The notes beneath the pieces are model-generated. The model saw nothing but the letters and a program-made list of their open reading frames with translations. It ran no database searches and was not told where the DNA came from. A stretch of DNA of 64,000 nt, from positions 4,096,001-4,160,000 of the forward strand of contig OZ250150.1 in NCBI GenBank assembly GCA_965237675.1, written 5' to 3'. Each line of letters starts with the position of its first letter. Positions within the stretch are counted from its first letter, which is position 1. This document shows, in pieces, positions 2,346 to 23,128 of this stretch. The DNA is from Candidatus Latescibacterota bacterium. GTDB lineage: Bacteria; Latescibacterota; UBA2968; GCA-2709665. The translations under genes and the position numbers were made by a program.

Positions 2346-5048
2346 ATGTCGGAAATACTTGCATTCAAGGAAGTTGCGAGGCTCCCCCGACCGGGAGACA
2401 ACGTGGCCATCGCTTCCCGTAGACTGGATGCCGGCACCAGTATCCGATGGCGTGGTGCGGTTCTTCGGCTGGATACATCCATTCTGGAAGGCCATCGTTT
2501 TGCCGTGGACCCCATCCCCGCTGGCGAGGCCCTTCTGTCCTGGAATCTTCCCTTCGGCATTGCACTGGAGGACATTTCGGCCGGGAACTATGTCTGTAAC
2601 GCGGGCATGCTCGAAGCCCTGCGCATCCGCTCCCTTGATTTTCAACTTCCCACCGAACCCAATTTCGAAGACCGCATCGAATCCTACCGGCTGGATGAGA
2701 GCACATTCAAACCGGGCGAGCAGGTTCCCGCCGCCGGGGAGATGCGCACCTTTGAAGGATACGTCCGCGGCCCCGGGCGTGGGGTGGGAACGCGCAATTA
2801 CGTCGTTATCCTAGGGACAACCTCCCGGACGGGCAGCTTTGCAAAGCGGTTGGAGAAACGGTTGGGGGGCGTTGCCGATGCCTATCCGAATATCGACGGC
2901 ATTGTGGCCGTTACACACACCGAAGGCGGCGGGCGAACAACACCAAACAACCTGGACCTCCTGCTGAGAACCCTTGCCGGCTTTATGGTACATCCAAATG
3001 TCGGTGCAGCCCTTGCCGTCGACTACGGCACGGAACCGCTCACCAATGCCATGCTCAGCACCTACATGGCAGAGAACAACGCCGCTCTATCGGACCTCCC
3101 CCACCGCTTCTTTACCATGGGGGGCAGTTTTGACGAGAATCTCGATCGAGCCGAGACCATCGTGAAGGGCTGGATGGAGGGGGTGAATCGCCCGCGCCGA
3201 AAAACGACCCCGGCCGCATCCCTGAAAATTGCGCTGCAATGCGGCGGTTCTGACGCTTTCTCGGGCGTATCGGGAAACCCGCTCGCATCCTGGGTCGCCT
3301 GCGAAGTCATCCGGCACGGCGGGGCCGCAAACCTCGCGGAAACGGACGAACTGATCGGCGCGGAATCCTACGTGTTACAGAATGTCAGGGATCTGGACAC
3401 GGCCCGCCGTTTTCTGGAACGCGTGGAAGCCTACAAGAACCTTGCGGCGTGTCACGGTTCGAGCGCCGAAGGAAACCCCTCAGGGGGCAATAAACTCCGT
3501 GGGATCTACAACATCGTACTCAAGTCCATCGGCGCTGCCATGAAACGGCACCCTGAAGTCCGCCTTGACGGGGTTCTGGACTACGGCCAACCGATGCACG
3601 AGCCCGGATATTATTTCATGGACAGTCCTGGTAACGACCTTGAAAGCATTGCGGGACAGGTCGCGTCGGGATGCAATATGATCTTGTTTGTGACTGGCAA
3701 TGGTTCGATCACCAATTTCCCATTTGTACCCACGATCAAAATCATCACCACCACCAGCCGGTACGAACTCCTCTCCAATGAAATGGACGTAAACGCCGGC
3801 GCCTATCTGGACGGGACTCCACTGGACGCGCTGGGGATGCGGATGACGGACCTCACGCTGGGTGTGGCTTCCGGCATACGGAGCAAAGGTGAACGTGCCG
3901 GCCACGCCCAGGTCTCCATCTGGCGCAACTGGCAGCAGACGGATACCGCAAACCTGGCGCATCTGCGGTCGCTGCCCCAACCCGAGGGCAGGCCCATCAC
4001 CATCGAGCTCGAAGAAGCACGTCCCTCGGCCACATTCAGGGCGGTCGTCACGGAGAGAGGTATCGCCACGGATCAGGTGGGCCTGATTCTACCCACCAGC
4101 CTGTGTGCCGGCCAAATCGCAAAGATGGCTGCAAACCGACTGGAGCAAAAGCAGATCGGAAAGACGCAGGGCATCTCCCGCTACGTCGCGCTCGTACATA
4201 CGGAAGGCTGCGGCGTCGCGGGCGACGCGACGGAACGGATGTATTCCAGGACGATGCTGGGCTATCTCACCCATCCCGTGGTGAAATATGCCCTGTTGCT
4301 TGAGCACGGATGCGAGAAAACCCACAACGACTATCTTCGCCACGAACTCGAGAGCGCGGGCATCGACCCCGCACGCTTTGGCTGGTCAAGTATCCAACTC
4401 GACGGCGGACTTGAATGTGCGCTCGGGAACGTGGAAGCGTGGTTCACGGCTCAACTGGAACACGATCGCCGGCCTTCTTACGAGCAATCCGATCTGGCAG
4501 CGCTTTCCGTTGGACTGCTGACGGCCGGCCCGGTGAGCAACAACGCCTCGGAAACGCTGGCAAACCTATTGCGCCGGCTGGTACGTATGGGCGCAACGGT
4601 TGTGACACCGGACAACTCGACGCTACTCTCCTCGGCCCCCTTTGCGAATACCGTTCTGACGAACTCGTCCGCGGATCCGTCGCTGGCCTATGGCCAGGCC
4701 GCCTCGATACCCGGGTTCTACATCATGGAAACGCAGACGGACCACTGGGTTGAAACCCTTACCGGCCTGGGCGGAACGGGCGTTGAGATCCTGATCGCTC
4801 ACGTTGCCGAACACCCCATGCAGGGGCACCCGATGTTGCCTATGCTTCAGACCAGCGTGGATCCATCCATGTGCGCGCTTTACACAAGCGACCTGGACCT
4901 TCCGCTAACCGATGCAGCGGACGCCAATGCCGGGCGGATTATCGGCCTGCTGACGGAAACCGCCTCCCGAAACTATCGTCCGGCGGCGATGCGGCAGGAA
5001 AATACGGATTTTCAGTTTACCCGGGGGCTGCTCGGCGTATCAATGTGA
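2346..5048 (+). CDS. UxaA/GarD family (altronate/galactarate) dehydratase, extended and internally duplicated, 900 aa
   Basis: N-terminal SAF domain (DNVAIA..GHRFA..I.AGE), GTRNY, HPNVG, CGGSD, ETDELIGAE, GNPSGGN. A second HTEGCG..HP..GCE module occurs after about aa 575. Confidence 0.9.
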   Translation: MSEILAFKEVARLPRPGDNVAIASRRLDAGTSIRWRGAVLRLDTSILEGHRFAVDPIPAGEALLSWNLPFGIALEDISAGNYVCNAGMLEALRIRSLDFQLPTEPNFEDRIESYRLDESTFKPGEQVPAAGEMRTFEGYVRGPGRGVGTRNYVVILGTTSRTGSFAKRLEKRLGGVADAYPNIDGIVAVTHTEGGGRTTPNNLDLLLRTLAGFMVHPNVGAALAVDYGTEPLTNAMLSTYMAENNAALSDLPHRFFTMGGSFDENLDRAETIVKGWMEGVNRPRRKTTPAASLKIALQCGGSDAFSGVSGNPLASWVACEVIRHGGAANLAETDELIGAESYVLQNVRDLDTARRFLERVEAYKNLAACHGSSAEGNPSGGNKLRGIYNIVLKSIGAAMKRHPEVRLDGVLDYGQPMHEPGYYFMDSPGNDLESIAGQVASGCNMILFVTGNGSITNFPFVPTIKIITTTSRYELLSNEMDVNAGAYLDGTPLDALGMRMTDLTLGVASGIRSKGERAGHAQVSIWRNWQQTDTANLAHLRSLPQPEGRPITIELEEARPSATFRAVVTERGIATDQVGLILPTSLCAGQIAKMAANRLEQKQIGKTQGISRYVALVHTEGCGVAGDATERMYSRTMLGYLTHPVVKYALLLEHGCEKTHNDYLRHELESAGIDPARFGWSSIQLDGGLECALGNVEAWFTAQLEHDRRPSYEQSDLAALSVGLLTAGPVSNNASETLANLLRRLVRMGATVVTPDNSTLLSSAPFANTVLTNSSADPSLAYGQAASIPGFYIMETQTDHWVETLTGLGGTGVEILIAHVAEHPMQGHPMLPMLQTSVDPSMCALYTSDLDLPLTDAADANAGRIIGLLTETASRNYRPAAMRQENTDFQFTRGLLGVSM

Positions 5049-6576: not shown

Positions 6577-6661
6577 GCCCAGGCGCGATTGGAAGCGGAC
6601 AGCGTTTGCATGGGTGCCACCCATCGGCATCCGGATCACCCGCGCCGGAAAAACGCCGGCT

Positions 6662-6874
6662 TCAACCCTTCTGTCTGGACTTCGCCCTTCGGATGCAGGC
6701 GCCCACGGCAAGCCCGAGACTGGCGCCGATCGATACGCCGGCACTCAACCACAGGCCGAAGTCACCGCTACCTGCGCCCATCGCTGAGCCCACACCGGCG
6801 CCGACGCCCGACCCGATGGCCATCCATTTTCCAACCTGTCGTTGTCCGTTCCCGTCATCCGGTACGTCGGGCAT
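6662..6874 (-). CDS. Small glycine-zipper membrane protein
   Basis: MAIGSGVGAGVGSAMG..LSAGVSIGASLGLAVG, two GxxxG-rich hydrophobic helices and a basic tail; AGG RBS upstream. Confidence 0.6.
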   Translation of the reverse strand: MPDVPDDGNGQRQVGKWMAIGSGVGAGVGSAMGAGSGDFGLWLSAGVSIGASLGLAVGACIRRAKSRQKG

Positions 6875-7008
6875 GGCATACCTTTCGCGAATCAGCACCT
6901 GCTGTTTCCGACGCTCGAAATATACCGGCCCGAGTCGAACCGGACAAGCTTAAAGCACCTCCGAAGCCGAAATTACTGTTCCATCCCGGAAATATGTTAC
7001 CATTCATC

Positions 7009-7340
7009 CCTGTCTGCGTGCGTGAGGCTGCACGCACAGGCAGGCGCCGATTCATCCCGCCTCGCTGCGTTGTTTACACTGAGCCTGTCGAAGTGGCTTG
7101 TTGAATCAACAGCGTCTCGACACCCGTGATTTAGAATCTTCGCCACCCCCAAACGCCCCCTATTCCCTTGCCCTTTTTCTTGCATCGCCCAAGAAAAAGG
7201 GCGAAAAAGAAGGGCGCCGCTCGGCGCGGGGCCGGTTTTTCCGCGAATGACTCCAGTGGCGGTTACGTACACGTCTGCCCTGCGTACGTGAAAGCACGCT
7301 TCTTGCAGCGGCGCTGAACGGAATAGCGCGGAAAAACCCC
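7009..7340. repeat. Cluster of REP-like palindromes
   Basis: CCTGTCTGCGTGCG..CACGCACAGGCAGG (7009-7044); CACTGAGCCTGTCGAAGTG (7077-7095); CCCTTTTTCTTG..CAAGAAAAAGGG (~7171-7201); GGTTTTTCCGCG..CGCGGAAAAACC (~7234-7338). Confidence 0.6.
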
Positions 7341-7914
7341 CCACACCACCGGTCGCAAGATGGGAGAATTGCAATATGATGATGATGTTTGACGTCAATG
7401 CGCCGAGAACCCACCTTCACCAGCGTAGCGGGTGACCTGTTGCGGGGGTTATGCGGAACAACACGGGACGCATGGTTTTGGCATTCGACGTTGATAGTAA
7501 GCGGCACGTCTCACGCTGCGAACAACGCCTCCTCCACCCGGCCCGGACGGGAGTGAGGGCATCTTGCCCTCGCTGCGCCCGTTCTGGTCCCGCCTCTTCA
7601 CGGCGATGACGTCAACTGATTGGGTTTTTGATTCAAGCTGCCGGCTGAGAGCTGATAGCTGTTTTTGCTGCTTCTGGTCGGCCGAATTTTGGCGATCTAT
7701 TTCTGGAACAGAACTCTACAAGTTGCTTGACATCTTCCTTGCGCCGGTTTTAGATATGGTGTGAAGACACCCAGGTTAACAAACGCGCGATGTTGCCACG
7801 CGGGCCCCGCCGCGGCCCTGACACGTCCGTTGTCGATCCGACGCTCTGTCAACACGCGTCAACGGACAGTAGCGGATTGAATTGCATCCTGCTTTTCGCG
7901 GAAGGGAGTATCCA

Positions 7915-8772
7915 ATGCAGCCTGAGATGATTGCGGACTACCACTGTGAGACCGGCGAAGGACCACTCTGGCATCCCACGGAAAAAAGGGTCTACTGGAC
8001 CGATATTCCCGCGGGTCGCGTGTTTCGCTATGACCCGGCCACGGGAATGCACGAAATCTGTTACACCGGGGATGTCGTGGGGGGCTTTACGGTCCAGGAG
8101 GATGGGTCCTTGCTTCTCTTCATGGAGAAGGGCGCGGTCAAAACCTGGCGCGACGGCGAACTCGCCACGGTGATCGACGAAATCCCCGATGAGCGTGAGA
8201 CCCGATTCAACGACGTGATTGCGGATCCCGATGGCAGGGTTTTTTGCGGAACCATGCCCACACCGGAGCGGCCGGGCAGGCTTTACCGGCTGGACACGGA
8301 CGGGAGCCTCCACCTTGTCCTCGATGAGGTCGGGATTTCCAACGGTATGGGTTTCACGGCGGACCAGAGGACCATGTATTTCACGGACACCCCCACGCTG
8401 AATATCTACCGGTTCGACTACGATCGACTAACCGGGGATATCACGAATAGGAAGGTTTTCGCACAGGCGGCGGAAGGCCAAGGCATGCCCGACGGCATGA
8501 CCGTTGACGCCGTCGGTTACGTCTGGTCCGCCAGATGGGACGGCAACTGCCTTGTACGATACAGGCCGGACGGCGTGGAGGACCTGCGCATCGCGTTCCC
8601 GGTAAGAAAGGTGTCCAGTCTCACATTCGGAGGCGGTGATTACACCGATATCTACGTCACCACCGCGGGCGGTCATATCAAACACGAAGACGGCGAACAC
8701 GCCGGCGCCCTCTTCCGGCTGAACCTGGGCATCCGGGGCGTTGAAGAGTTCTATTCGCGTATCGGACTTTAA
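7915..8772 (+). CDS. SMP-30/gluconolactonase family protein
   Basis: GEGPLW, WTDI, RFND..DPDGR, ISNGMGF, PDGMTVD motifs; GGGAG RBS. Confidence 0.93.
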   Translation: MQPEMIADYHCETGEGPLWHPTEKRVYWTDIPAGRVFRYDPATGMHEICYTGDVVGGFTVQEDGSLLLFMEKGAVKTWRDGELATVIDEIPDERETRFNDVIADPDGRVFCGTMPTPERPGRLYRLDTDGSLHLVLDEVGISNGMGFTADQRTMYFTDTPTLNIYRFDYDRLTGDITNRKVFAQAAEGQGMPDGMTVDAVGYVWSARWDGNCLVRYRPDGVEDLRIAFPVRKVSSLTFGGGDYTDIYVTTAGGHIKHEDGEHAGALFRLNLGIRGVEEFYSRIGL

Positions 8773-13256: not shown

Positions 13257-14054
13257 TCAGCCCAACTGCAGCGCCCGCCACCTATCGTATGCCCTGTGCA
13301 TCCCCGCCGGCAGGAATTCACGTACATTGTCCGCAAGCATCCATTTCACTCGTTCGTCTGTCGCCTGCGCCTCTTCACTTTCCACATGTTTGTGCCAACT
13401 CCCCGCAAGTGTCAACCTCTCGGGCTCGGTATTATATATACCGCGATGAACCGCATTGCCGGTCCAGAAGATCGTCTGTCCTGCCTTCAGGTTGATCACC
13501 TTCTGTGTCGATATGTCCGCGTGCCGATTTTTCAACAGGCACTCCCGTTCCTCATCCGTACGGTACCGCCTGTGGCTGCCCGGCACAAGCTGCAGGCAGC
13601 CGTCGTCAACCAGCGCCAGGTGCCACTTTAATGACACCATCGGCCGGTTGAGGATTTCCATTTCTACGTCATAGGACCCGTCCCGCTCATTGGTGCCGAA
13701 ATCCCGGTGCCACCCTCCGCTCCAATCTACCTCGTCGGGCGTTGTGAAAATGACGACGCCGCCCAAACACAGGTCGCTTCCCAGCAGCGGTTCGACGTAT
13801 CGCATCACCGGTTGGGACATCAGGTATTCCGCAAATACAGGTTCGTTGAATTCCGGTGCAAACAACCCCCTGATCGCCCACGGCTCCCCACCGGGTGTCC
13901 GGTGTGTGTACACGTCCACCTCTCGGGAACGCGTTTTGGCCTTCACGCGCCGCGTGGCGTCGAGAAGCGGCTCCAGCATGCCCTGATCAACGGCATCATC
14001 CACGACAAAATAGCCCTGTGTCTCGTACTGTTCCGTGACGTCTTCCAAAACCAT
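13257..14054 (-). CDS. PhyH family Fe(II)/2-oxoglutarate dioxygenase
   Basis: YETQGYFVV, WHRD (HxD), GCLQLVPGSH, KAGQTIFW..VHRG. Confidence 0.88.
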   Translation of the reverse strand: MVLEDVTEQYETQGYFVVDDAVDQGMLEPLLDATRRVKAKTRSREVDVYTHRTPGGEPWAIRGLFAPEFNEPVFAEYLMSQPVMRYVEPLLGSDLCLGGVVIFTTPDEVDWSGGWHRDFGTNERDGSYDVEMEILNRPMVSLKWHLALVDDGCLQLVPGSHRRYRTDEERECLLKNRHADISTQKVINLKAGQTIFWTGNAVHRGIYNTEPERLTLAGSWHKHVESEEAQATDERVKWMLADNVREFLPAGMHRAYDRWRALQLG

Positions 14055-14287: not shown

Positions 14288-17200
14288 TCACCACTCCTTC
14301 TTCCAGAAAAGCCCCAGTGACTTCCGATCGCGTTCCCGTTCGTTGCCCTCCCTCTGCTGCGCCTCCAGTGTAACCTGCGGCAACAGTTCGTATTCCACGA
14401 CGACCTCCCTCCCCGTTGCCTTGGAGACATCCTGCGCGTAGCTGACGAAGAACCGGGAGCCGAAATACTTTCCCGCCCGCACCCGGGTTGCAGAGTTTCC
14501 CATTCCAAGGTCTATCTCCACGACGTCCAGATTCAACCGCTGTCCGATCGTACGCTTCAACTGGTTTGCCGCCACACCCAGTACAAGGATCGCAGCCTGC
14601 CCTTCCAGCCGGCCCCCGGCGCCGCCTTCCCCACGCATCAACCCGGACACGTCGTCGGCCGGCCTTCCGATCAACAGGTAAGAAAGGATGTCCGCTTCGG
14701 CCAAGGGTGGCGTCGTATCACTTTCCAGGGAAATATTGGGTTCCAGAAGCGTTCCCCCCACAACGACGCTGATCACCGCGTTTTCGTTGGAAACCAGCCT
14801 GACCCTGCGGGTTGCTATGATGTAGAGATCGGGATTGATATCCGAACTACCACGGAAATTGATTTCTCCTCGGTCGATCGCAAAACTGGAATTCTGAAAC
14901 TCGTACCGACCCTGCCTGCTATCGAGAGATCCGTAAACCCTGAGTCCCTCCTGGTCCTTCACCAGATCCACGTCACCTGAAATCTCGACATTCAAATTCC
15001 TGTCCCGGATCCAGACATTCCGAGAGGCCGATACCCGGATGTCGCAGTTCAGATTCCGAAAGAATGGAGACGTCGTCCAGGAAACGTCGGTCGGATATTC
15101 GATGAAATCGGACAGCCGTAGCACCGCTCGGGTCAACCCCGCCTTACCTTCTATTCGCCCCCCCTCCGCATTCCCATGCAGCTTCAATTCCGCATTTAGT
15201 GTCGCTTTGAGTTCCGGCAGGTCGATCACCTTAAATTCCTTGGCCTGGAACGCGATATCGTAATCCTCCATCGCGTTTTCGCCCAGTTTTGCTCTTCCGC
15301 TGAGCGCGAGCCTTCCCTTTCCATCTACGGCCTCGAGCCGTCCCAGGACGTTTCCATTGTCTTCAAAGCTGAGTTCCGCTTCTACATTCTTGAAGGTCTT
15401 GTTCAGGGGCGCAATCCGGGCGGTTCCGTCACGAAGACGAACCCATCCGTTCTGCCGAAGCGCTCGGGGAGTGCCCCTGACGTTCAGGTTCATCGCCAGA
15501 TGACCTCCTGCGTTCCGCACCTCCGGGATCACGTGCGGCAGAAAGTCCAGGTCTACGCCGTCCGATTCCAGTGACACCTGAACTGGCCCGTCGGGAAACA
15601 GGTCTTCCCGCCGCCCGGCGAATATATCCAGCGGGAATTTCCCCCGCACGACAGCCTCCCTTCCGGACGACTGCACCACCTTCAAGTCAAACGTCGTGCG
15701 GTCATTCCCATAACTCGCCGTCCCGGAAAGATTCGCGATGCTGACGCCGCGGACGGTGCCATCCTTAAGATCGAAGCCGGTCTCCAACCGGGGGTCTTGC
15801 AGCGTCCCGGAAAAGGTGGCCTCCCCTTTCATCGTGCCGCTCACCTCGCCTTCCAACCCGGCAAGAAACGCCCATGTACCCAGATCCACGTCCTCCAGTT
15901 GCAACGTCACGCCGGCAGGTTCTCCGGAGTGCCCACTCGCTCGAATCCTGCCACCGGTTCCAACCATCCTGAACCGCTCCACCGAGACACCTGCGTCGGG
16001 GAGATACCGCAGCCGGCAGGGGCCGTCGTTCAGCAGGGTCGCATCGCCCACGTGAACCGCAAGTGAATCCAGATCGATCCAATATTCCGCGTTGGACGTT
16101 CCGGCGCGGCCCCGGAGATGGAGATAATCGATGTCGTCCGCACGACTGCCCATTACAAAAGATACCCCGGCTTCATCGAGGCCCAGATCCAGAGATACGT
16201 CCCGGATCACCCGGTCACCCCACACTACGGATTCCCCCCGGAAAAACAAACCGGGTTGCGCCGGGGACTGCCATCTCATTCCAGCCTTGACTCCCTTTAT
16301 CTTTACATCCCGGTAGTTGAGGCTGTCGGCCTCCAGATCCACACGGACAACCGGCTTCGACCAGGTTCCACCAAGCCGGGCGATCACCGACGCGGGCGTA
16401 CCTGAGAGTCCCGGCCCTACCATACCGCTCAAGGCTTCGAAATCGTAAACCTGGCCGTTCGCACGGATGTCCAGACTGTCACCCGGGATGATCCAACCCC
16501 GGCCTTCGACGCTCGCTCGCTTACCGGCCAGGATCATTCGATTCACGATTGTCCGGCGACCATGCTGAACCAGGCTCGCTCTCGCGCTATCCAGTTTTCC
16601 GCCGAGAAAACGGGACGCATCCACGATCACGTCCGCGCTGACTTGCACCGAATCCGGGTGAAACCCCTCGCCAGAGAGTCCGATCTGCAGCGACACGTCT
16701 TCCAGGAGGTCGGCGCGGCCCAGGAGCCGATCCACCGCCAGGCCGTCCACCCGCACCCCCGCCCGGTAAGTGGGTTGTTTCCCATCCGGTTTCCAGAATT
16801 GGCCCAGATCGATCCGGCCGTGTCCCCTGACCACGCCGTATCCGTCCGACAGTCTCACCCCCATGCTATCGAAGCTGACAATACCTCGCCGAAACGACCC
16901 GCGGAGCACGAATCCTTTTGCCGGAGGCAGCCCCTCGATATTCAGGTTGTCGAACCTGGCTTCGCCTCGCCAGATCCCATCACCCGACCGCCGCAGCCAG
17001 ATATTCCCCGTGAGGCCGACAACCGGTGGTAAATTCCGTGACACCCGGGTCAGGTCCAGATGTACCAGGCGCGTTCTCAATTCGTAGAACGGCTCCCCTC
17101 CCCTCCTGTCAACTTCCAACCTGGCGGTCAGCCTTCCAGCATGTCCCTCGGCCGCAACGTCAATCGCGAGTTTTCCATTTCGCAGCGAGGCTGACAGGGT

Positions 17201-18334
17201 CGCCGTATCGACGACAGTACCCGAGAATAGCGCACGGGCGATCCCGGCGCTGACGGACACGTCGGCCGTCTGGGGATCCAGGCCCCGTCCTTTCAGCTGA
17301 ACGGCCGCGTCGAACCGGGCCTCCAGCCCCCACTGCGGGCCGATTCTCGCCAGGTCAACCCCGGTCCCGATCGCCTGGATGTCGTAAGCGACGCCCTCAC
17401 GAGAGAATTCAACAAGCCCGGAAAGGTCGCAGGCGGCTGACCCGTAGTTGAATCTCAGATCCATGTTCACGCCGGAGGGATCGCCCCACACCCTGCCGCC
17501 TGCCGCCAGACTTCCCTGTGGATAGGTTCCGGGCAGAATTCGACCTATTTCGCCAAACGCAAGAGAATCCGCACGTAGCACGAAATCGTACTCGGGTCGT
17601 GACAGCCCGGTCATCGTTCCGTCGAACCGGACGTGGGAACCCGGCGTCTGCAGCCGAAGCCCCTCAAACGTCAGCCGTCCATCGGCAAGCAGGGTCAGCC
17701 CCGTCAGATCCCTGATTACCAGAGGAGGATCGAATAGAAGGGACCGGAAACGGCAGAGCGACAATTCGTATCCCGTCGGACCGGCCTGAAACCGCAGGAC
17801 CGCATCCAGGCTGTCGATCCTGCCGGCAGCGCCAAAGCGGCACCGGCCATCCACGACCTCCGCGTGGCGGATGCGAATATCCCATTTCGGACCCTCTGTC
17901 CACCACGCAGGGTCCGAGGCGGGCAACAGGCGAACGGCGGAATCCGCGACGGCCGCACCTACCGGGAGTCGGATCCTCGGGGCGACCAGGACGAGTTTAT
18001 CCACAATCACGGCGCCCCTGAGCAACGCCGTCAACTGATAACGGGCTTCCACTGCGTCCACAATCAGCAGCGGTTGGGATTCAGCGCCGAGGCGCACGCG
18101 TTCCATCCGGAACCCTGTTAAGGGGTTGCCACGAAGGGCGCCGATGCCCACGGCCAGTCCCAGATCCCGGGAGAGCCGCTGCTGCAGATAATCGCGCAGA
18201 TATGGGTTCATCCGTCCCGATCCCAACGCCAGCAGACCGATCCCCGCAGCCACGATCACCGCGGCCGCAAACAGAGTAGCTATTTTAACGATCCGTCTCA
18301 TGAGATTTCGATATGGCACGGTGAACCAACGCAT
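14288..18334 (-). CDS. tamB: Translocation and assembly module TamB (DUF490)
   Basis: N-terminal TM anchor, long beta-rich body, C-terminal NPDL.I.A..GTLLEP.I.L.S..DILSYLL.G..GKY..VEYEL; downstream of an Omp85 gene. Confidence 0.85.
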   Translation of the reverse strand: MRWFTVPYRNLMRRIVKIATLFAAAVIVAAGIGLLALGSGRMNPYLRDYLQQRLSRDLGLAVGIGALRGNPLTGFRMERVRLGAESQPLLIVDAVEARYQLTALLRGAVIVDKLVLVAPRIRLPVGAAVADSAVRLLPASDPAWWTEGPKWDIRIRHAEVVDGRCRFGAAGRIDSLDAVLRFQAGPTGYELSLCRFRSLLFDPPLVIRDLTGLTLLADGRLTFEGLRLQTPGSHVRFDGTMTGLSRPEYDFVLRADSLAFGEIGRILPGTYPQGSLAAGGRVWGDPSGVNMDLRFNYGSAACDLSGLVEFSREGVAYDIQAIGTGVDLARIGPQWGLEARFDAAVQLKGRGLDPQTADVSVSAGIARALFSGTVVDTATLSASLRNGKLAIDVAAEGHAGRLTARLEVDRRGGEPFYELRTRLVHLDLTRVSRNLPPVVGLTGNIWLRRSGDGIWRGEARFDNLNIEGLPPAKGFVLRGSFRRGIVSFDSMGVRLSDGYGVVRGHGRIDLGQFWKPDGKQPTYRAGVRVDGLAVDRLLGRADLLEDVSLQIGLSGEGFHPDSVQVSADVIVDASRFLGGKLDSARASLVQHGRRTIVNRMILAGKRASVEGRGWIIPGDSLDIRANGQVYDFEALSGMVGPGLSGTPASVIARLGGTWSKPVVRVDLEADSLNYRDVKIKGVKAGMRWQSPAQPGLFFRGESVVWGDRVIRDVSLDLGLDEAGVSFVMGSRADDIDYLHLRGRAGTSNAEYWIDLDSLAVHVGDATLLNDGPCRLRYLPDAGVSVERFRMVGTGGRIRASGHSGEPAGVTLQLEDVDLGTWAFLAGLEGEVSGTMKGEATFSGTLQDPRLETGFDLKDGTVRGVSIANLSGTASYGNDRTTFDLKVVQSSGREAVVRGKFPLDIFAGRREDLFPDGPVQVSLESDGVDLDFLPHVIPEVRNAGGHLAMNLNVRGTPRALRQNGWVRLRDGTARIAPLNKTFKNVEAELSFEDNGNVLGRLEAVDGKGRLALSGRAKLGENAMEDYDIAFQAKEFKVIDLPELKATLNAELKLHGNAEGGRIEGKAGLTRAVLRLSDFIEYPTDVSWTTSPFFRNLNCDIRVSASRNVWIRDRNLNVEISGDVDLVKDQEGLRVYGSLDSRQGRYEFQNSSFAIDRGEINFRGSSDINPDLYIIATRRVRLVSNENAVISVVVGGTLLEPNISLESDTTPPLAEADILSYLLIGRPADDVSGLMRGEGGAGGRLEGQAAILVLGVAANQLKRTIGQRLNLDVVEIDLGMGNSATRVRAGKYFGSRFFVSYAQDVSKATGREVVVEYELLPQVTLEAQQREGNERERDRKSLGLFWKKEW

Positions 18335-18388
18335 GCTTCAGATAGGGTCAATGTACGGGTCGTTTCCGTCCGGCCCTCACATGACACT

Positions 18389-20143
18389 TCAGAACGCCTG
18401 TCCCAGGCTGAAATAAATCTGTCGCCGGGGCTCGCACCGATCGTCCGATAGCCGGTACGCGACGTCGATCCTCACGGGGCTGATGGGATTCAGATAGCGC
18501 ACGCCCATGCCTGCCGCCAGCCGCAGACGGCCTGGATCGAAGGCCCCGATCCGATCCGATCCCACGTTGCCCGCGTCCATGAAAACGGCTATACCCAGCC
18601 CGGGCATTAACCGGGTACGCACTTCGAAGCTTCCTTCCAGCAGGCTCCTGCCGCCCACCGGATCGCTGTTTGCATCCCGGGGGCCGAGCCGGTTCAAGCT
18701 CCATCCCCGCACGCTGTTCGCCCCACCCGCGAAAAACCGCTCGAAATTGGGGATCGACTCGACCGTTCCGAGGTTCAGGATCATTCCACCGGATACCCTA
18801 AGTGCAAGTACGCTCTTCCAGAATACCTTCCGGTACCAGCGACCCTCCCCCGACACTTTGAGGAATTCTCTGTCAGCCGACGCTTTGACCGCGAGTTCGG
18901 CCAACAAGCCCCGCTGCGGGTCGAAAAAATCGTCTCGTCTATCTTCCAGGTATTCTGCCGAAAGCGTCGTGCGGGTGCTGTCCAACTCGAACTCGACGAC
19001 TTCAGTCCTCACCTGAAAGACGACTCGCCCGGTGGCCCGGAAGGTCCGTTCCAATGCCGCGCTGGCCCCTCCACGCTTCACCCGGACCTCCTTCGGTCGT
19101 TCCTGCTCCACAAACCCCGTCATCTCCAGCCATGTCCTGCTCCCGAGGATGTACGGCTGGCGAATTCCAACCGTCGCTTGAGCTTCCAGCGCCGAAGCGG
19201 AGGACTCGATGGTCAACTGGCGTGCGCCTCCTCCCAGAAAACTCCGGTGCCGCCACGCCAGCAAACCCCTAAGCTGTTCCTCGGTATCGTAACCCGCCCC
19301 CAATTTCAGGCTGCGGGCCGGGCGCTCCCGAACGACAACGGATACACCCACAGGGCTTGCCACGGCAACCGTATCGGGCAGTCCAAGTGAAACCGACCGA
19401 AATGCCTCCGACCGATAGAGTTGGAGTCGGCTGTTCAAGAGGTCCTTCTGCCTGTATGCGTCGCCTTCCCGAAAAGTCAGGCCCCGCAGGATCAGACCTT
19501 CCGAAACACTTCGATTACCCTGGATTCTCACCTGTCCGAACCGGCACCTGGGTCCCGGCGTCGCCCGGAACGTCACGATCGCCCGGTCGCCCCGCCGCGC
19601 CACTTCCGCCGCGACCTCCGCGAAAGCGTGGCCGTTGTCCTGAAGCCTGTCGGAAATCAGTTTAAGATCCGCCTCGCGGCCCATCCGGGTCAGCGGACGA
19701 TCCGGCCTGGTAATCAATGCATCCATCAGGCGCAGGCTGTCCTGCCCGGCGTCTGCCGGCACGACCTCCAGCCGGACGTCAGATACGACAACAGGCGCTC
19801 CTTCTTCGATCCGGATCCGAATGCGTACGAATCCTGGGCGGTACCGTTCGACGACCGTGTCCAGAACAGCTTCAAAATAGCCGCGGTCCGCGTAATGTGC
19901 CGCGATCCGGTCGACATCGGATCGAAAAACGAGCGCATCGTACCGCCGCTCCTCTGCACCAGGGAATATCCCGTACCACGGGTTCGCACGGGTATGCATC
20001 AGCCGCTTAAGTTCGCCAGTGGAGAGCACCCGATTTCCCTCGATCGCAATCGCTTCGACGATGGCAGACTTCGTTTCCTGTCCGGAAAGGGCAAGGGGGA
20101 TACAGGAAAAGACCATGGCGACGACGGCTCTGACATAAATCAA
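18389..20143 (-). CDS. tamA: Omp85 family outer-membrane protein TamA
   Basis: Signal peptide, three POTRA-like repeats (IEGNR, IEEG, IQGNR), FFAGGANSVRGW, RIDVA, C-terminal LGQAF. Confidence 0.88.
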   Translation of the reverse strand: MIYVRAVVAMVFSCIPLALSGQETKSAIVEAIAIEGNRVLSTGELKRLMHTRANPWYGIFPGAEERRYDALVFRSDVDRIAAHYADRGYFEAVLDTVVERYRPGFVRIRIRIEEGAPVVVSDVRLEVVPADAGQDSLRLMDALITRPDRPLTRMGREADLKLISDRLQDNGHAFAEVAAEVARRGDRAIVTFRATPGPRCRFGQVRIQGNRSVSEGLILRGLTFREGDAYRQKDLLNSRLQLYRSEAFRSVSLGLPDTVAVASPVGVSVVVRERPARSLKLGAGYDTEEQLRGLLAWRHRSFLGGGARQLTIESSASALEAQATVGIRQPYILGSRTWLEMTGFVEQERPKEVRVKRGGASAALERTFRATGRVVFQVRTEVVEFELDSTRTTLSAEYLEDRRDDFFDPQRGLLAELAVKASADREFLKVSGEGRWYRKVFWKSVLALRVSGGMILNLGTVESIPNFERFFAGGANSVRGWSLNRLGPRDANSDPVGGRSLLEGSFEVRTRLMPGLGIAVFMDAGNVGSDRIGAFDPGRLRLAAGMGVRYLNPISPVRIDVAYRLSDDRCEPRRQIYFSLGQAF

Positions 20144-20497
20144 ATCTTTACATCCTGTTCAGTCACTCAACGGGAATGGACGATGGTTCAACAGATGACC
20201 AATCATGTTTCGGCGACGTCCGCGGGCAGGCTGGTCCGCCGGCGTGCGACGTCACGTCTGCAGTTGGTAGCTCGCCCGTCGCCGGCACTTCCTATGACGC
20301 CCGCCAATCCTGTCGGTTTCAGATCTCGGTCCCGAAGCGGAAGATATGTATCCGGTCTCCGGGCACAAGGGATTTCTGTCACGCCAACAGTCCAGACCGA
20401 CCCCGTGGAGCGCTTTTCACGGCCCGATGGGCGAAAAATGGTACGGCCCCTTTAACCGGCGTGGAAAAAGGGGCCTGAAACAGCGACATTAAGGTGC

Positions 20498-23128
20498 TCA
20501 CACACTCGCGACTGCCGCCTCGGGCGGGGGATTCTCGTGGTGGACGTCAAGCACGCCGTTCTTCAGATCGACGGTAATCCGGGCCCCGTCCATGATGTCC
20601 CCGCTAATGAGCGCACGTCCGATTCGAGTCTCCAATTCCCGTTGCAAGAAACGCTTGAGCGGGCGCGCGCCATAAACCGGATCGAAACCCTCTCGCGCGG
20701 CGAATTCCCTGGCGGGACCGGCGATCTCAAGGTCGATCCCCCGGTCTCCGAGGCGCTTTCGGAGATCCGCGGTCAATAGGTCCACGATCTTCGCGATTTC
20801 AGCCTGCGTCAAGGATTTGAATAGAACAATATCGTCAACGCGGTTGAGAAATTCCGGCCGGAAATGGCGTCGCATCTCGTCCAACACCGTCAGGCGGGCT
20901 TTTTCGCTGATCTCTCCGGTCCCCCCCACACCCTCCAGCAGGTGGGACGACCCGATGTTGGAGGTCATGATGATTACCGAGTTCTTGAAGTCAACCGTCC
21001 GGCCCTGTGCGTCCGTCAACCGCCCGTCCTCCAGGATTTGAAGCAACACGTTGAACACGTCGTGGTGGCCCTTCTCGATTTCGTCGAACAGGATCACCGA
21101 GTAGGGCTTTCGGCGGACCGCCTCGGTCAACTGGCCGCCTTCGTCGTAGCCCACATATCCCGGTGGCGCGCCAACCAGTCGCGAGACGGTGTGCCGTTCC
21201 ATGTATTCACTCATGTCGATGCGTACCATGTTCTCCTCGGAATCGAAAAGCGCTTCCGTGAGCGTCTTGGCCAGTTCGGTCTTGCCGACTCCGGTGGGCC
21301 CCAGGAAGATGAACGAGCCGATCGGCCGGCGCGGATCCTTAACCCCGGCCCGGGCCCGGATCACGGCGTCGGCCACCAGCGAAACGGCCTCCTCCTGCCC
21401 CACGACGCGCCGGTGTAGAATCTCGTCCAGGCGGAGGAGCTTCTCGCGTTCGCCTTCCACCAACCGCTTCACGGGAATCCCGGTCCAGCACGAGACGATC
21501 TCCGCGATCTCCTCCCCGGTCACCTCTTCGCGCAGCAGCCGGCCATTCCCCTGCGACCTCGCCTCCTGGGCAGACAGCGTTTGTTCCAGCTCCGGCAGCC
21601 GCCCGTGACTCAACTCCGCCAGCCGGTTCAGATCGTACTTCCGTTCAGCGTCTTCGATCTCGCGCCGCACGGCTTCAATCTGCTCACGAAGCGTCCGAAC
21701 CGTGTCGATCACGTCCTTCTCGGATTCCCACTGAGCCCGCATCGCGGCGGCCTGCGCCTTCAGATCGGCCAACTCCTTCCGAAGGTCTTCAAGTCTCTGT
21801 GCGCTCGCCAGATCCGTCTCTTTCTTCAATGCCGCCTCTTCGATTTCGAGTTGCATCACCCTGCGGGTTGCCTCGTCCAGCCCCGCCGGCATGGAATCGA
21901 TCTCGGTCCGGATCATCGCGCAGGCCTCGTCCACCAGGTCGATCGCCTTATCGGGCAGAAACCGATCCGATACGTACCGGTTGGAGAGCACAGCCGCGCT
22001 CACAAGGGCGTTGTCCTGAATACGTACCCCGTGGTGTACCTCGTATCTTTCACGAAGTCCCCTCAGGATCGAAATCGTGTCCTCCACAGAGGGCGCATCC
22101 ACCGTAACGGGCTGAAACCGTCGCTCCAGGGCGGTGTCCTTCTCGATATATTTTCGGTATTCGTCAAGCGTTGTCGCCCCGATACAGTGCAGTTCCCCAC
22201 GCGCCAGCATCGGCTTCAACATATTTCCCGCGTCCGCTGACCCTTCGGTACGTCCGGCCCCGACAATATTGTGCACTTCGTCGATAAACAACAGAATGCG
22301 GCCCTCGCTCCGGACAATCTCATTCAACACCGCCTTGAGTCGCTCCTCGAACTCTCCGCGGAACTTCGCGCCTGCCATCAACGCACCCAGATCCAGGGAA
22401 AACACGGATCGCTCCTTCATCCGATCCGGCACATCCCCGCTCACAATGCGCTGCGCCAGTCCTTCGACAACGGCCGTCTTCCCGACCCCAGGCTCCCCGA
22501 TCAGGACGGGGTTGTTCTTCGTCTTTCGTGACAGGATACGCACAGTCCTTCTTATTTCCGCATCCCGCCCGATCACCGGATCCAGCTTGCCCTTGCGCGC
22601 CTGCGCGACCAGATCCACACCGTACTTCTCAAGCGCTTCGTAGGTGCCTTCGGGTTCGGGGTTGGTCACCCTCTGATTGCCTCGTACACGGGTCAACGCA
22701 TCGAGAAACGCCTCTTTTTTGGCCTTGAACTCCTGCAGGATCCGCCCAGCCTGGGTATCCGGTCCCTCGCCCAGCAGCGCCAGCGCCAGGTGTTCCACGG
22801 AAACATATTCGTCCTTCAGCCGCCTTGCTTCTTCCTCTGCCTGCTGAAACAACTGCTGGAAACGCTGTGTCACGTACACCTGTCCGGGCTCCGCACCCCC
22901 TCCGGTTTGACGGGGCCTCCGACCGAGTTCCCGATCCAACTGCGTTTTCAGGGCTGCCACGTCGATCTGCATCCGCGCCAGAATTCGCGGGATCAGCCCA
23001 TCCTGCAGCTCCAGCAGCGCCAGAAGCAGGTGTTCGCCGTCTACCTCCACGTGCCCGTACCCGGATGCGCTCGTCTGCGCGTCCCTAAGCGCCTCCTGCG
23101 ATTTTTGCGTCAGTCGATTCAGGTCCAT
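20498..23128 (-). CDS. clpB: Chaperone ClpB
   Basis: [16 protein letters not shown], coiled-coil M domain, [27 protein letters not shown]; 876 aa. Confidence 0.98.

Follow-up and report, generated by a model that had tools for sequence, protein, structure and literature searches.

The window analysed here is a stretch of 64,000 nucleotides (nt) from a Candidatus Latescibacterota bacterium (NCBI GenBank assembly GCA_965237675.1, contig OZ250150.1, positions 4,096,001 to 4,160,000 of the forward strand), and all nucleotide positions are counted from its first letter. The gene in question, at positions 2346 to 5048, is a single ATG-initiated open reading frame (ORF) of 900 amino acids (aa) plus a stop codon. 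A sequence-only reading had taken it to encode an internally duplicated UxaA/GarD dehydratase, in which one SAF domain is followed by the middle and C-terminal domains twice. A Pfam scan of the whole ORF gave two stretches each of GD_AH_second, the middle domain, and GD_AH_C, the C-terminal domain. Pfam was also run on the two halves separately (aa 1-535 and aa 536-900). In these runs GD_AH_second was matched at aa 138-280 and at about aa 580-686, both above its cut-off of 27.3 bits, and GD_AH_C gave one strong match, at aa 291-529 of half 1. A remnant of GD_AH_C in half 2 (about aa 780-859, E 0.11) lay under the 26.8-bit cut-off. Of the two middle and two C-terminal domains that a hidden Markov model scan had been expected to return, both middle domains were thus found, whereas the second C-terminal domain was sub-threshold and was recovered by profile-profile comparison alone. 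The SAF match (aa 18-80) was also under its Pfam cut-off (13.4 vs 21 bits, E 0.11); the region matched the UxaA N-terminal fragment 3k3s with E 6.6e-7 by sequence and a Foldseek template modelling (TM) score of 0.80-0.82, and Foldseek TM scores against 3k3s and 3laz were 0.66-0.82 overall. The SAF domain is present in one copy only. Solved structures were matched by sequence only over the first 513 residues (GarD 6u7l, E 8.9e-42, and 3k3s). The protein thus contains each of the domains of the UxaA/GarD superfamily (COG2721; SAF + GD_AH_second + GD_AH_C).

Table 1. Domain layout of the 900-aa protein, with positions in the window and the basis of each assignment
Feature	Position (nt)	Strand	Basis or remark
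Whole ORF	2346..5048	+	order: SAF, mid1, C1, mid2, C2, tail
SAF / beta-clip domain, N-terminal, aa 18-83	2397..2594	+	Pfam SAF (weak), PDB 3k3s, Foldseek
Middle domain 1 (mid1), aa 135-284	2748..3197	+	Pfam GD_AH_second, 95.3 bits
C domain 1 (C1), aa 285-530, canonical	3198..3935	+	Pfam GD_AH_C, 256 bits
Inter-repeat linker, aa 531-562, without a second SAF	3936..4031	+	poor conservation
Middle domain 2 (mid2), aa 563-716	4032..4493	+	Pfam GD_AH_second, 55.6 bits
C domain 2 (C2), aa 717-885, degenerate and shortened	4494..5000	+	Pfam 12.2 bits; hhalign to C1
C-terminal tail NTDFQFTRGLLGVSM, aa 886-900	5001..5045	+	conserved; contacts in predicted complex

The two halves are homologous beyond chance. 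BLASTP of half 1 against half 2 gave two alignments, one of 165 aa with 31% identity (E 2e-11) and one of 76 aa with 22% (E 5e-6). Using sub-alignments of the family, hhalign paired mid1 with mid2 at a probability of 98.4% (E 4e-15, 142 columns) and C1 with C2 at 97.2% (E 3e-11, 161 columns), and the cross controls were negative (mid1/C2 probability 0.2%, mid2/C1 0.1%). A stretch matching about aa 341-403 of C1 is missing from C2. The proposed order, a SAF domain and then two middle-plus-C units, is therefore borne out by Pfam, by the comparison of the halves with BLASTP and by hhalign.

Every motif named in the sequence-only reading was found at its position. In the middle domain of copy 1 these are TTSR (aa 158-161, nt 2817), HTEGGG (aa 191-196, nt 2916) and YGTE (aa 227-230), and in C1 CGGSD (aa 299-303, nt 3240), ETDELIGAE (332-340), GNPSGGN (376-382), DSPGND (426-431) and TGNGS (450-454). 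C1 thereby has the full motif set of GD_AH_C in the superfamily (CGGSD, ExxE, NPSxGN, PGND and TGxG). The middle domain of copy 2 has TSLC (aa 584-587, nt 4095), HTEGCG (618-623, nt 4197) and HGCE (654-657, nt 4305). In C2, LLTAGP (aa 724-729, nt 4515) replaces CGGSD, and the ETDE, NPSGGN, SPGND and TGNGS motifs are also absent.

Both halves were aligned with Escherichia coli UxaA and GarD (NC_000913), each of which has one Cys in CGGSD and three more in the middle domain. At the equivalents of those three, copy 1 has R161, G195 and T229, and it keeps C299 (nt 3240-3242) within QCGGSD. Copy 2 has C587 (nt 4104-4106), C622 (nt 4209-4211) and C656 (nt 4311-4313), in the contexts PTSLC, HTEGCG and EHGCEKTHND, and T726 at the fourth site. 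The motif check and this alignment agree with what had been read from the letters for each copy: copy 1 has lost its middle-domain Cys and has a canonical C domain, and copy 2 has kept its three and has a degenerate C domain. The protein thus has the four Cys of the superfamily, but divided between its units: unit 1 carries C299, unit 2 carries C587, C622 and C656, and neither has the complete set.

The role of these residues has been considered in a study of C785_RS13685, a D-arabinonate dehydratase of Herbaspirillum huttiense (PMC6336799). There, Cys134, Cys173, Cys208 and Cys276 are given as the only Cys conserved across the superfamily, with the exception of sulfolactate sulfo-lyase SuyAB, which is without the conserved Cys. 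The authors propose that these four form the shared iron-binding site, a rubredoxin-like centre, and report Cys-to-Ser mutants of all four (PMC6336799, Fig. 2h). Their spacing of 39/35/68 matches positions 587/622/656/(726) and 161/195/229/299 of the 900-aa protein, and so the proposed iron ligands would be split three (mid2) plus one (C1).

The sequence-only reading had suggested a survey of 900-aa homologs for the same reciprocal loss, and the pattern held in each of three sets. A protein search seeded with aa 540-900 gave 2,631 matches at E <= 1e-3 among 8,000 candidates scored, and 114 of the 120 homologs listed are at least 880 aa long and have the ~900-aa architecture. C587, C622 and C656 are present in all 114, no Cys is among the commonest residues at 161, 195 and 229, and CGGSD and the core of ETDELIGAE, NPSGGN, SPGND and TGNGS are invariant or nearly so. 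When the second half alone was used as query, an exhaustive HMMER search through 1.84 billion cluster representatives returned 725 matches at E <= 1e-3, of which 487 reached <= 1e-10 and 229 reached <= 1e-30; the 45 listed representatives of at least 840 aa, 29-40% identical to the query half, were taken as a divergent set. QCGGSD and the three copy-2 Cys are present in 45/45 of these, and Cys at the copy-1 sites in 0/45. The third set came from species-representative genomes, where the gene is one ORF in all 80 loci. Six loci of less than 850 aa, several of them cut by a contig end, were left out of the pattern count; the reciprocal pattern was seen in all 74 full-length proteins, the window protein included. 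The closest of the 80 loci, at 76% identity, is from Latescibacterota, and the hosts span a dozen or more phyla and include Latescibacterota, Poribacteria, Gemmatimonadota, Trueperaceae, Rubrobacter, Kribbella and many Chloroflexota, as well as Verrucomicrobiota, Bacteroidetes, Pseudomonadota, Acidobacteriota, Planctomycetota, SAR324, Paenibacillus, Alicyclobacillus and Aquibacillus.

Conservation was also compared between domains, as the density of positions at least 85% conserved in all three alignments. C1 is the most conserved domain (102/251), followed by mid2 (28/154) and mid1 (20/150). C2, conserved at only 7/169 positions, resembles a scaffold more than it does a second site. The tail NTDFQFTRGLLGVSM is conserved at 5/15 positions, with mean pairwise identities of 0.84/0.48/0.72, far above the rest of C2, and the linker at 0/27 positions over aa 536-562 (mean pairwise identity 0.15-0.33). 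This distribution fits one live and one putatively dead cleft. A second metal site in the degenerate cleft, with H800 and H823 as candidate residues, was considered and rejected, as these are conserved in close relatives (0.96 and 0.89) but not in the divergent representatives (0.26 and 0.13).

The 900-aa protein was modelled with AlphaFold2 (AF2) from the 74-sequence alignment, giving a mean predicted local distance difference test score (pLDDT) of 88.5 and a predicted TM score (pTM) of 0.91. Confidence was low in the loops at aa 376-379 (NPSG), aa 622-624 (a Cys loop) and aa 893-900 (pLDDT <50). In Foldseek, the first half of the model superposed on the four GarD chains of 6u7l with target-normalised TM scores of 0.84-0.86 and root-mean-square deviations (rmsd) from 3.4 to 4.8 A. 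Matches to CO dehydrogenases and malonyl-CoA reductase were discarded as non-informative (TM <= 0.17, rmsd ~20 A or more).

A complex of aa 1-535 with aa 536-900 was then predicted with Fe(II) included, and the output used was the list of interface residues and low-error pairs. The complex scored 0.93, and the best of three controls 0.00. In the benchmark, 116 of 157 solved complexes attained this mark, as did 2 of 215 mismatched pairs; these counts are rough guides here, as a custom alignment and a small molecule were used. Contact agreement between runs was at least 96%, and partner pLDDT at least 90. The half 2 interface contains the Cys loops (586-587, 619, 622-626 and 654-658), together with 683-690, 728, 797-802, 822-826, 845-849, 880-890 and 893-900. 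The half 1 interface contains the Cys-less equivalents in mid1 (160-171, 192-198, 227-229 and 258-263) and the motifs and C-terminus of C1 (300-301, 334, 366-382, 428-433, 450-456, 472-479 and 518-531). The lowest-error pairs joined mid1 residues 160, 161, 164 and 262 to C2 residues 802, 826, 849 and 884-888, and tail residues 893-899 to C1 residues 370, 428-433 and 526-530.

The predicted interface has pseudo-twofold symmetry: 18 of 19 mid1 interface residues map to mid2 interface residues (random expectation 6.1 +/- 2.0, maximum 12 in 2,000 draws), and 28 of 41 C1 interface residues map to C2 interface residues (random 9.6 +/- 2.4). Applied to the pairs 160-802 and 161-826, this symmetry gives 586-433 and C587-T456, so that the SPGNDLE and TGNGSIT loops of C1 would lie opposite the first Cys loop. 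In both halves the interface is enriched in residues that are invariant in the family. Of the 42 invariant residues in half 2 (365 aa), 21 are among its 63 interface residues (odds ratio 6.7, p 1.5e-7), and of the 118 in half 1 (535 aa), 27 are among its 69 (odds ratio 2.6, p 5e-4). The halves are thus predicted to pack head-to-tail about a pseudo-twofold, with the Cys loops of copy 2 and the motif loops of copy 1 in the interface, and the degenerate loops forming the opposite cleft. The tail NTDFQFTRGLLGVSM touches the C1 active-site loops in the predicted complex, yet its AF2 confidence is low at the residues noted above; in these models it may be a mobile lid.

We consider it probable that the 900-aa protein is a single-chain UxaA/GarD pseudo-heterodimer, with one composite four-Cys iron site acting on a sugar acid. 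It would have arisen by tandem duplication of an ancestral middle-plus-C unit behind one SAF domain, with the units packing head-to-tail so that each middle domain would face the C domain of the other unit. The intact cleft would be formed by C1, supplying C299 in QCGGSD and all the substrate and catalytic loops, and mid2, supplying C587, C622 and C656; the tail of unit 2 probably completes it, and mid1 may contribute in cis. The cleft between mid1 and C2, without Cys and motifs, would serve as scaffold. The architecture, the homology of the repeats, the strict reciprocal conservation and the predicted interface were observed in the analysis, and the trans geometry, the single site per chain, iron binding and catalysis are inferred. 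One iron would be bound by the four Cys in the intact cleft, and a 2,3-dihydroxy sugar acid would be dehydrated to a 2-keto-3-deoxy acid, as in characterised family members. The single SAF domain fits a single site. The earlier idea of a fused pseudo-dimer with one composite site across the repeats has therefore gained computational support from three sides: the reciprocal conservation, the split of the proposed iron Cys and the predicted complex.

Several observations weigh against a composite site of this kind. C299 itself is absent from the listed interface, although G300 and G301 are listed. Both structure predictions are models, and since the GarD homodimer is solved, the complex may have passed through its likeness to that dimer and so may not count as independent evidence. 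Three of the 45 divergent representatives (P0244, P0324 and P0381) have Cys at 726 without the ensuing GGSD, a residue that may be a relic of an ancestral second site. The nature of the superfamily iron centre is itself unsettled; electron paramagnetic resonance of the centre was ambiguous, and the authors call for further analysis (PMC6336799). Finally, mid1 retains the invariant residues H191, T192, E193 and G194 in addition to G148, N151, D184 and N218, and these last four fall outside the predicted inter-half interface.

The residues kept by mid1 also modify the earlier description of the second site as dead. H-T-E-G, R-T, P and G..E are common to both middle domains. At positions where UxaA and GarD are identical, mid1 alone keeps G148, N151, D184, G185, N218 and G220, where mid2 is variable. 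G148, N151 and N218 are present in 74/74 and D184 in 71/74 of the full-length proteins from species-representative genomes. Thus, while the second cleft has indeed lost its Cys and motifs, the retained canonical residues mean that mid1 is not simply dead and that the site may be tripartite. The residues canonical in mid1 only may serve C1 in cis.

The strongest rival, which we regard as unlikely, holds that there are two separate cis clefts. One, between mid1 and C1, would be catalytic without Cys-bound iron, using another metal or none; the other, between mid2 and C2, would keep a metal or Fe-S site of three Cys that serves in sensing, redox control or stability. A cleft is often formed by two facing alpha/beta domains of one chain, and clusters in which one iron is open typically have three Cys ligands. 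Mid1 retains G148, N151, D184, N218 and HTE in canonical form, and the superposition of the first half on a GarD protomer is close. However, this arrangement needs two new functions against one conserved function, and the predicted complex is trans, with the mid2 Cys loops touching half 1 and their mid1 equivalents touching C2. The low conservation of C2 also leaves the mid2 Cys without conserved ligands from a cleft partner, and C299 is invariant in 233 of 233 sequences although its three partner Cys would be lost.

That the protein is not an enzyme, and that with both clefts incomplete it binds sugar acids or acts as a regulator, is very improbable. It is true that neither repeat alone has four Cys and the motifs, and that the gene has no conserved pathway neighbourhood, but C1, all canonical motifs included, is conserved to the degree usual for a working active site, across relatives with second halves only 29-40% identical to that of the window protein. 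The complementary Cys do not vary, and many genomes have sugar or sugar-acid enzymes next to the gene (lactonase, GFO/IDH/MocA, SDR, aldehyde dehydrogenase and enolase-superfamily).

Least credible of all is an artefact in which two adjacent UxaA-like genes were joined by an assembly or frameshift error, as the ~900-aa ORF is uninterrupted in 80/80 species-representative loci of many phyla and in 114 of the 120 homologs listed, although databases do hold shorter proteins matching the second half only. A search for such short forms (200-639 aa) gave 426 matches, the best 120 of which were 44-54% identical, with one at 93%, and mostly lay on short contigs. Of 119 proteins of 300-460 aa, 38 passed a screen for a Met start, the Cys motif, the conserved tail and the absence of QCGGSD. 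The majority have as their first residue a Met that is internal in the fused protein (e.g. MDVNAGAYLDG, MPTSLC) and look like fragments, and so give no evidence for a free-living half-2 family. Seven proteins (P0132, P0149, P0199, P0229, P0237, P0300 and P0351) begin within the linker between the repeats and extend as far as the conserved tail; they may be frameshifted copies, or natural versions in which the protein is split over two genes.

The gene neighbourhood was compared across the 80 loci and the window. When 1,023 ORFs were clustered, no neighbour cluster occurred in more than 10 loci, and since no neighbour is conserved across genomes, no substrate is deducible from context. Among 148 immediate neighbours, the commonest Pfam families were PhyH (8), SKI (shikimate/gluconate-kinase-like, 6) and MR_MLE (4), followed by AP_endonuc_2 TIM barrels, SDR, aldo-keto reductase, sulfatase and Fe_dep_repr (3 each). 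In the window, the 900-aa gene is followed on its 3' side by a xylose-isomerase-like TIM-barrel gene, a 171-aa ORF directly after it (6589-7104, plus strand; no Pfam match at E <= 1e-3) and a gene for an SMP-30-type lactonase (7882-8772), with more sugar-type enzymes further downstream. Such a set of neighbours is broadly consistent with an oxidative sugar-acid route. In six Chloroflexota loci (L035, L043, L046, L048, L049 and L058) a SKI gene lies directly downstream. The shikimate-kinase family also includes gluconate kinases, and this neighbour might point to a later step that involves phosphorylation. The most frequent immediate neighbours are dioxygenases of the PhyH family, in eight loci (L016, L017, L019, L020, L021, L024, L052 and L053) and in several cases with fused HEAT repeats, and the window has one at 13257-14054 (minus strand), ~8 kb downstream of the 900-aa gene.

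Divergently upstream, on the minus strand, lie genes for a FeoB ferrous-iron transporter (1-1380) and a DtxR-type iron-dependent repressor (1590-2120). A perfect inverted repeat, ATGTTTTA-N4-TAAAACAT, is found in the intergenic region at 2162-2181, beside the start of the repressor gene, and a sigma-70-like promoter is found on the minus strand at 2219-2190. The DtxR-type repressor is an immediate neighbour also in three related loci (L004, L005 and L007), and a FeoB cluster is present in seven loci, the window included. This adjacency may reflect lineage synteny, or the coupling of an iron enzyme to iron supply. Further downstream, at 14288-23128 (minus strand), TamB, Omp85/BamA and ClpB-type genes point to a diderm host and have no connection with the 900-aa gene.

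UxaA/GarD dehydratases are widespread in sugar-acid catabolism, and their metal centre and active-site geometry are poorly defined. The sole full-length crystal structure among the PDB matches, 6U7L, reportedly contains Ca2+ and no iron. No description of the duplicated ~900-aa form was found in the literature on UxaA/GarD, altronate and galactarate dehydratases, with subscription journals mostly outside the coverage, and the only database labels among the homologs were 'UxaA family hydrolase' or 'altronate dehydratase'. The 900-aa family is large and ancient (229 clusters at 50% identity, E <= 1e-30), and it provides a genetic argument for which parts work together, as evolution has retained three Cys in one repeat, and the fourth Cys and all the catalytic loops in the other. 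This split retention between copies suggests that the family builds its active site across two subunits. It is conceivable, though we hold it to be rather doubtful, that the arrangement extends to the whole superfamily: the iron site would span subunits, with three Cys from one middle domain, the fourth Cys and the loops from the C domain of the partner, and a cap from the partner's tail. The 900-aa family would then be a half-of-sites version in a single chain, whose freed cleft may have taken on a new role, allosteric or effector-binding, and its reciprocal degeneration would amount to a natural complementation experiment. As a natural dissection of an ill-defined metal site, the family is relevant to enzymologists, and an asymmetric scaffold with one site per chain would be useful for mutagenesis, spectroscopy and structure work.

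The closest known systems each have one unit per chain or distribute their parts in another way. UxaA, the E. coli D-altronate dehydratase (495 aa), shares the superfamily, the domains, the four Cys and the C-domain motifs with the 900-aa protein. It is one unit per chain, 29% identical to the first half and 23% to the second half, and this likeness does not imply the same substrate. The close similarity and hexuronate context of a UxaA ortholog were not seen: no UxaA-specific NCBIfam model was listed at E <= 1, and none of uxaC, uxaB or exuT was found when 14 neighbours in the window and 148 immediate neighbours from the 80 loci were scanned. In SuyAB and the two-gene L-fuconate dehydratase, it is the SAF part that is split from the middle-plus-C part, and these enzymes are not known to have a duplication with reciprocal loss. 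Both are named as heteromeric members (PMC6336799), and they show that the superfamily tolerates its parts being spread over different polypeptides. The D-arabinonate dehydratase C785_RS13685 carries all four Cys in one ~500-aa chain and dehydrates via an enol intermediate to a 2-keto-3-deoxy acid (PMC6336799). The accessible text of the same study describes nine subfamilies in its tree without mention of a ~900-aa duplicated form.

The nearest solved relative is GarD of E. coli (PDB 6U7L, 523 aa), which has the domain order SAF, GD_AH_second and GD_AH_C and the C-domain motifs in common with the 900-aa protein. The NCBIfam equivalog model TIGR03248 scored 206.1 bits against a cut-off of 730.85, and so the 900-aa protein is not a GarD ortholog. 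GarD is said to be a homodimer of ~500-aa chains that dimerise via the second domain, and its structure reportedly has a Ca2+ site in the C-terminal domain and no iron. Each GarD chain carries all four Cys, whereas the 900-aa protein has a second, diverged middle-plus-C unit fused to the first, with the Cys split 3 + 1 between them.

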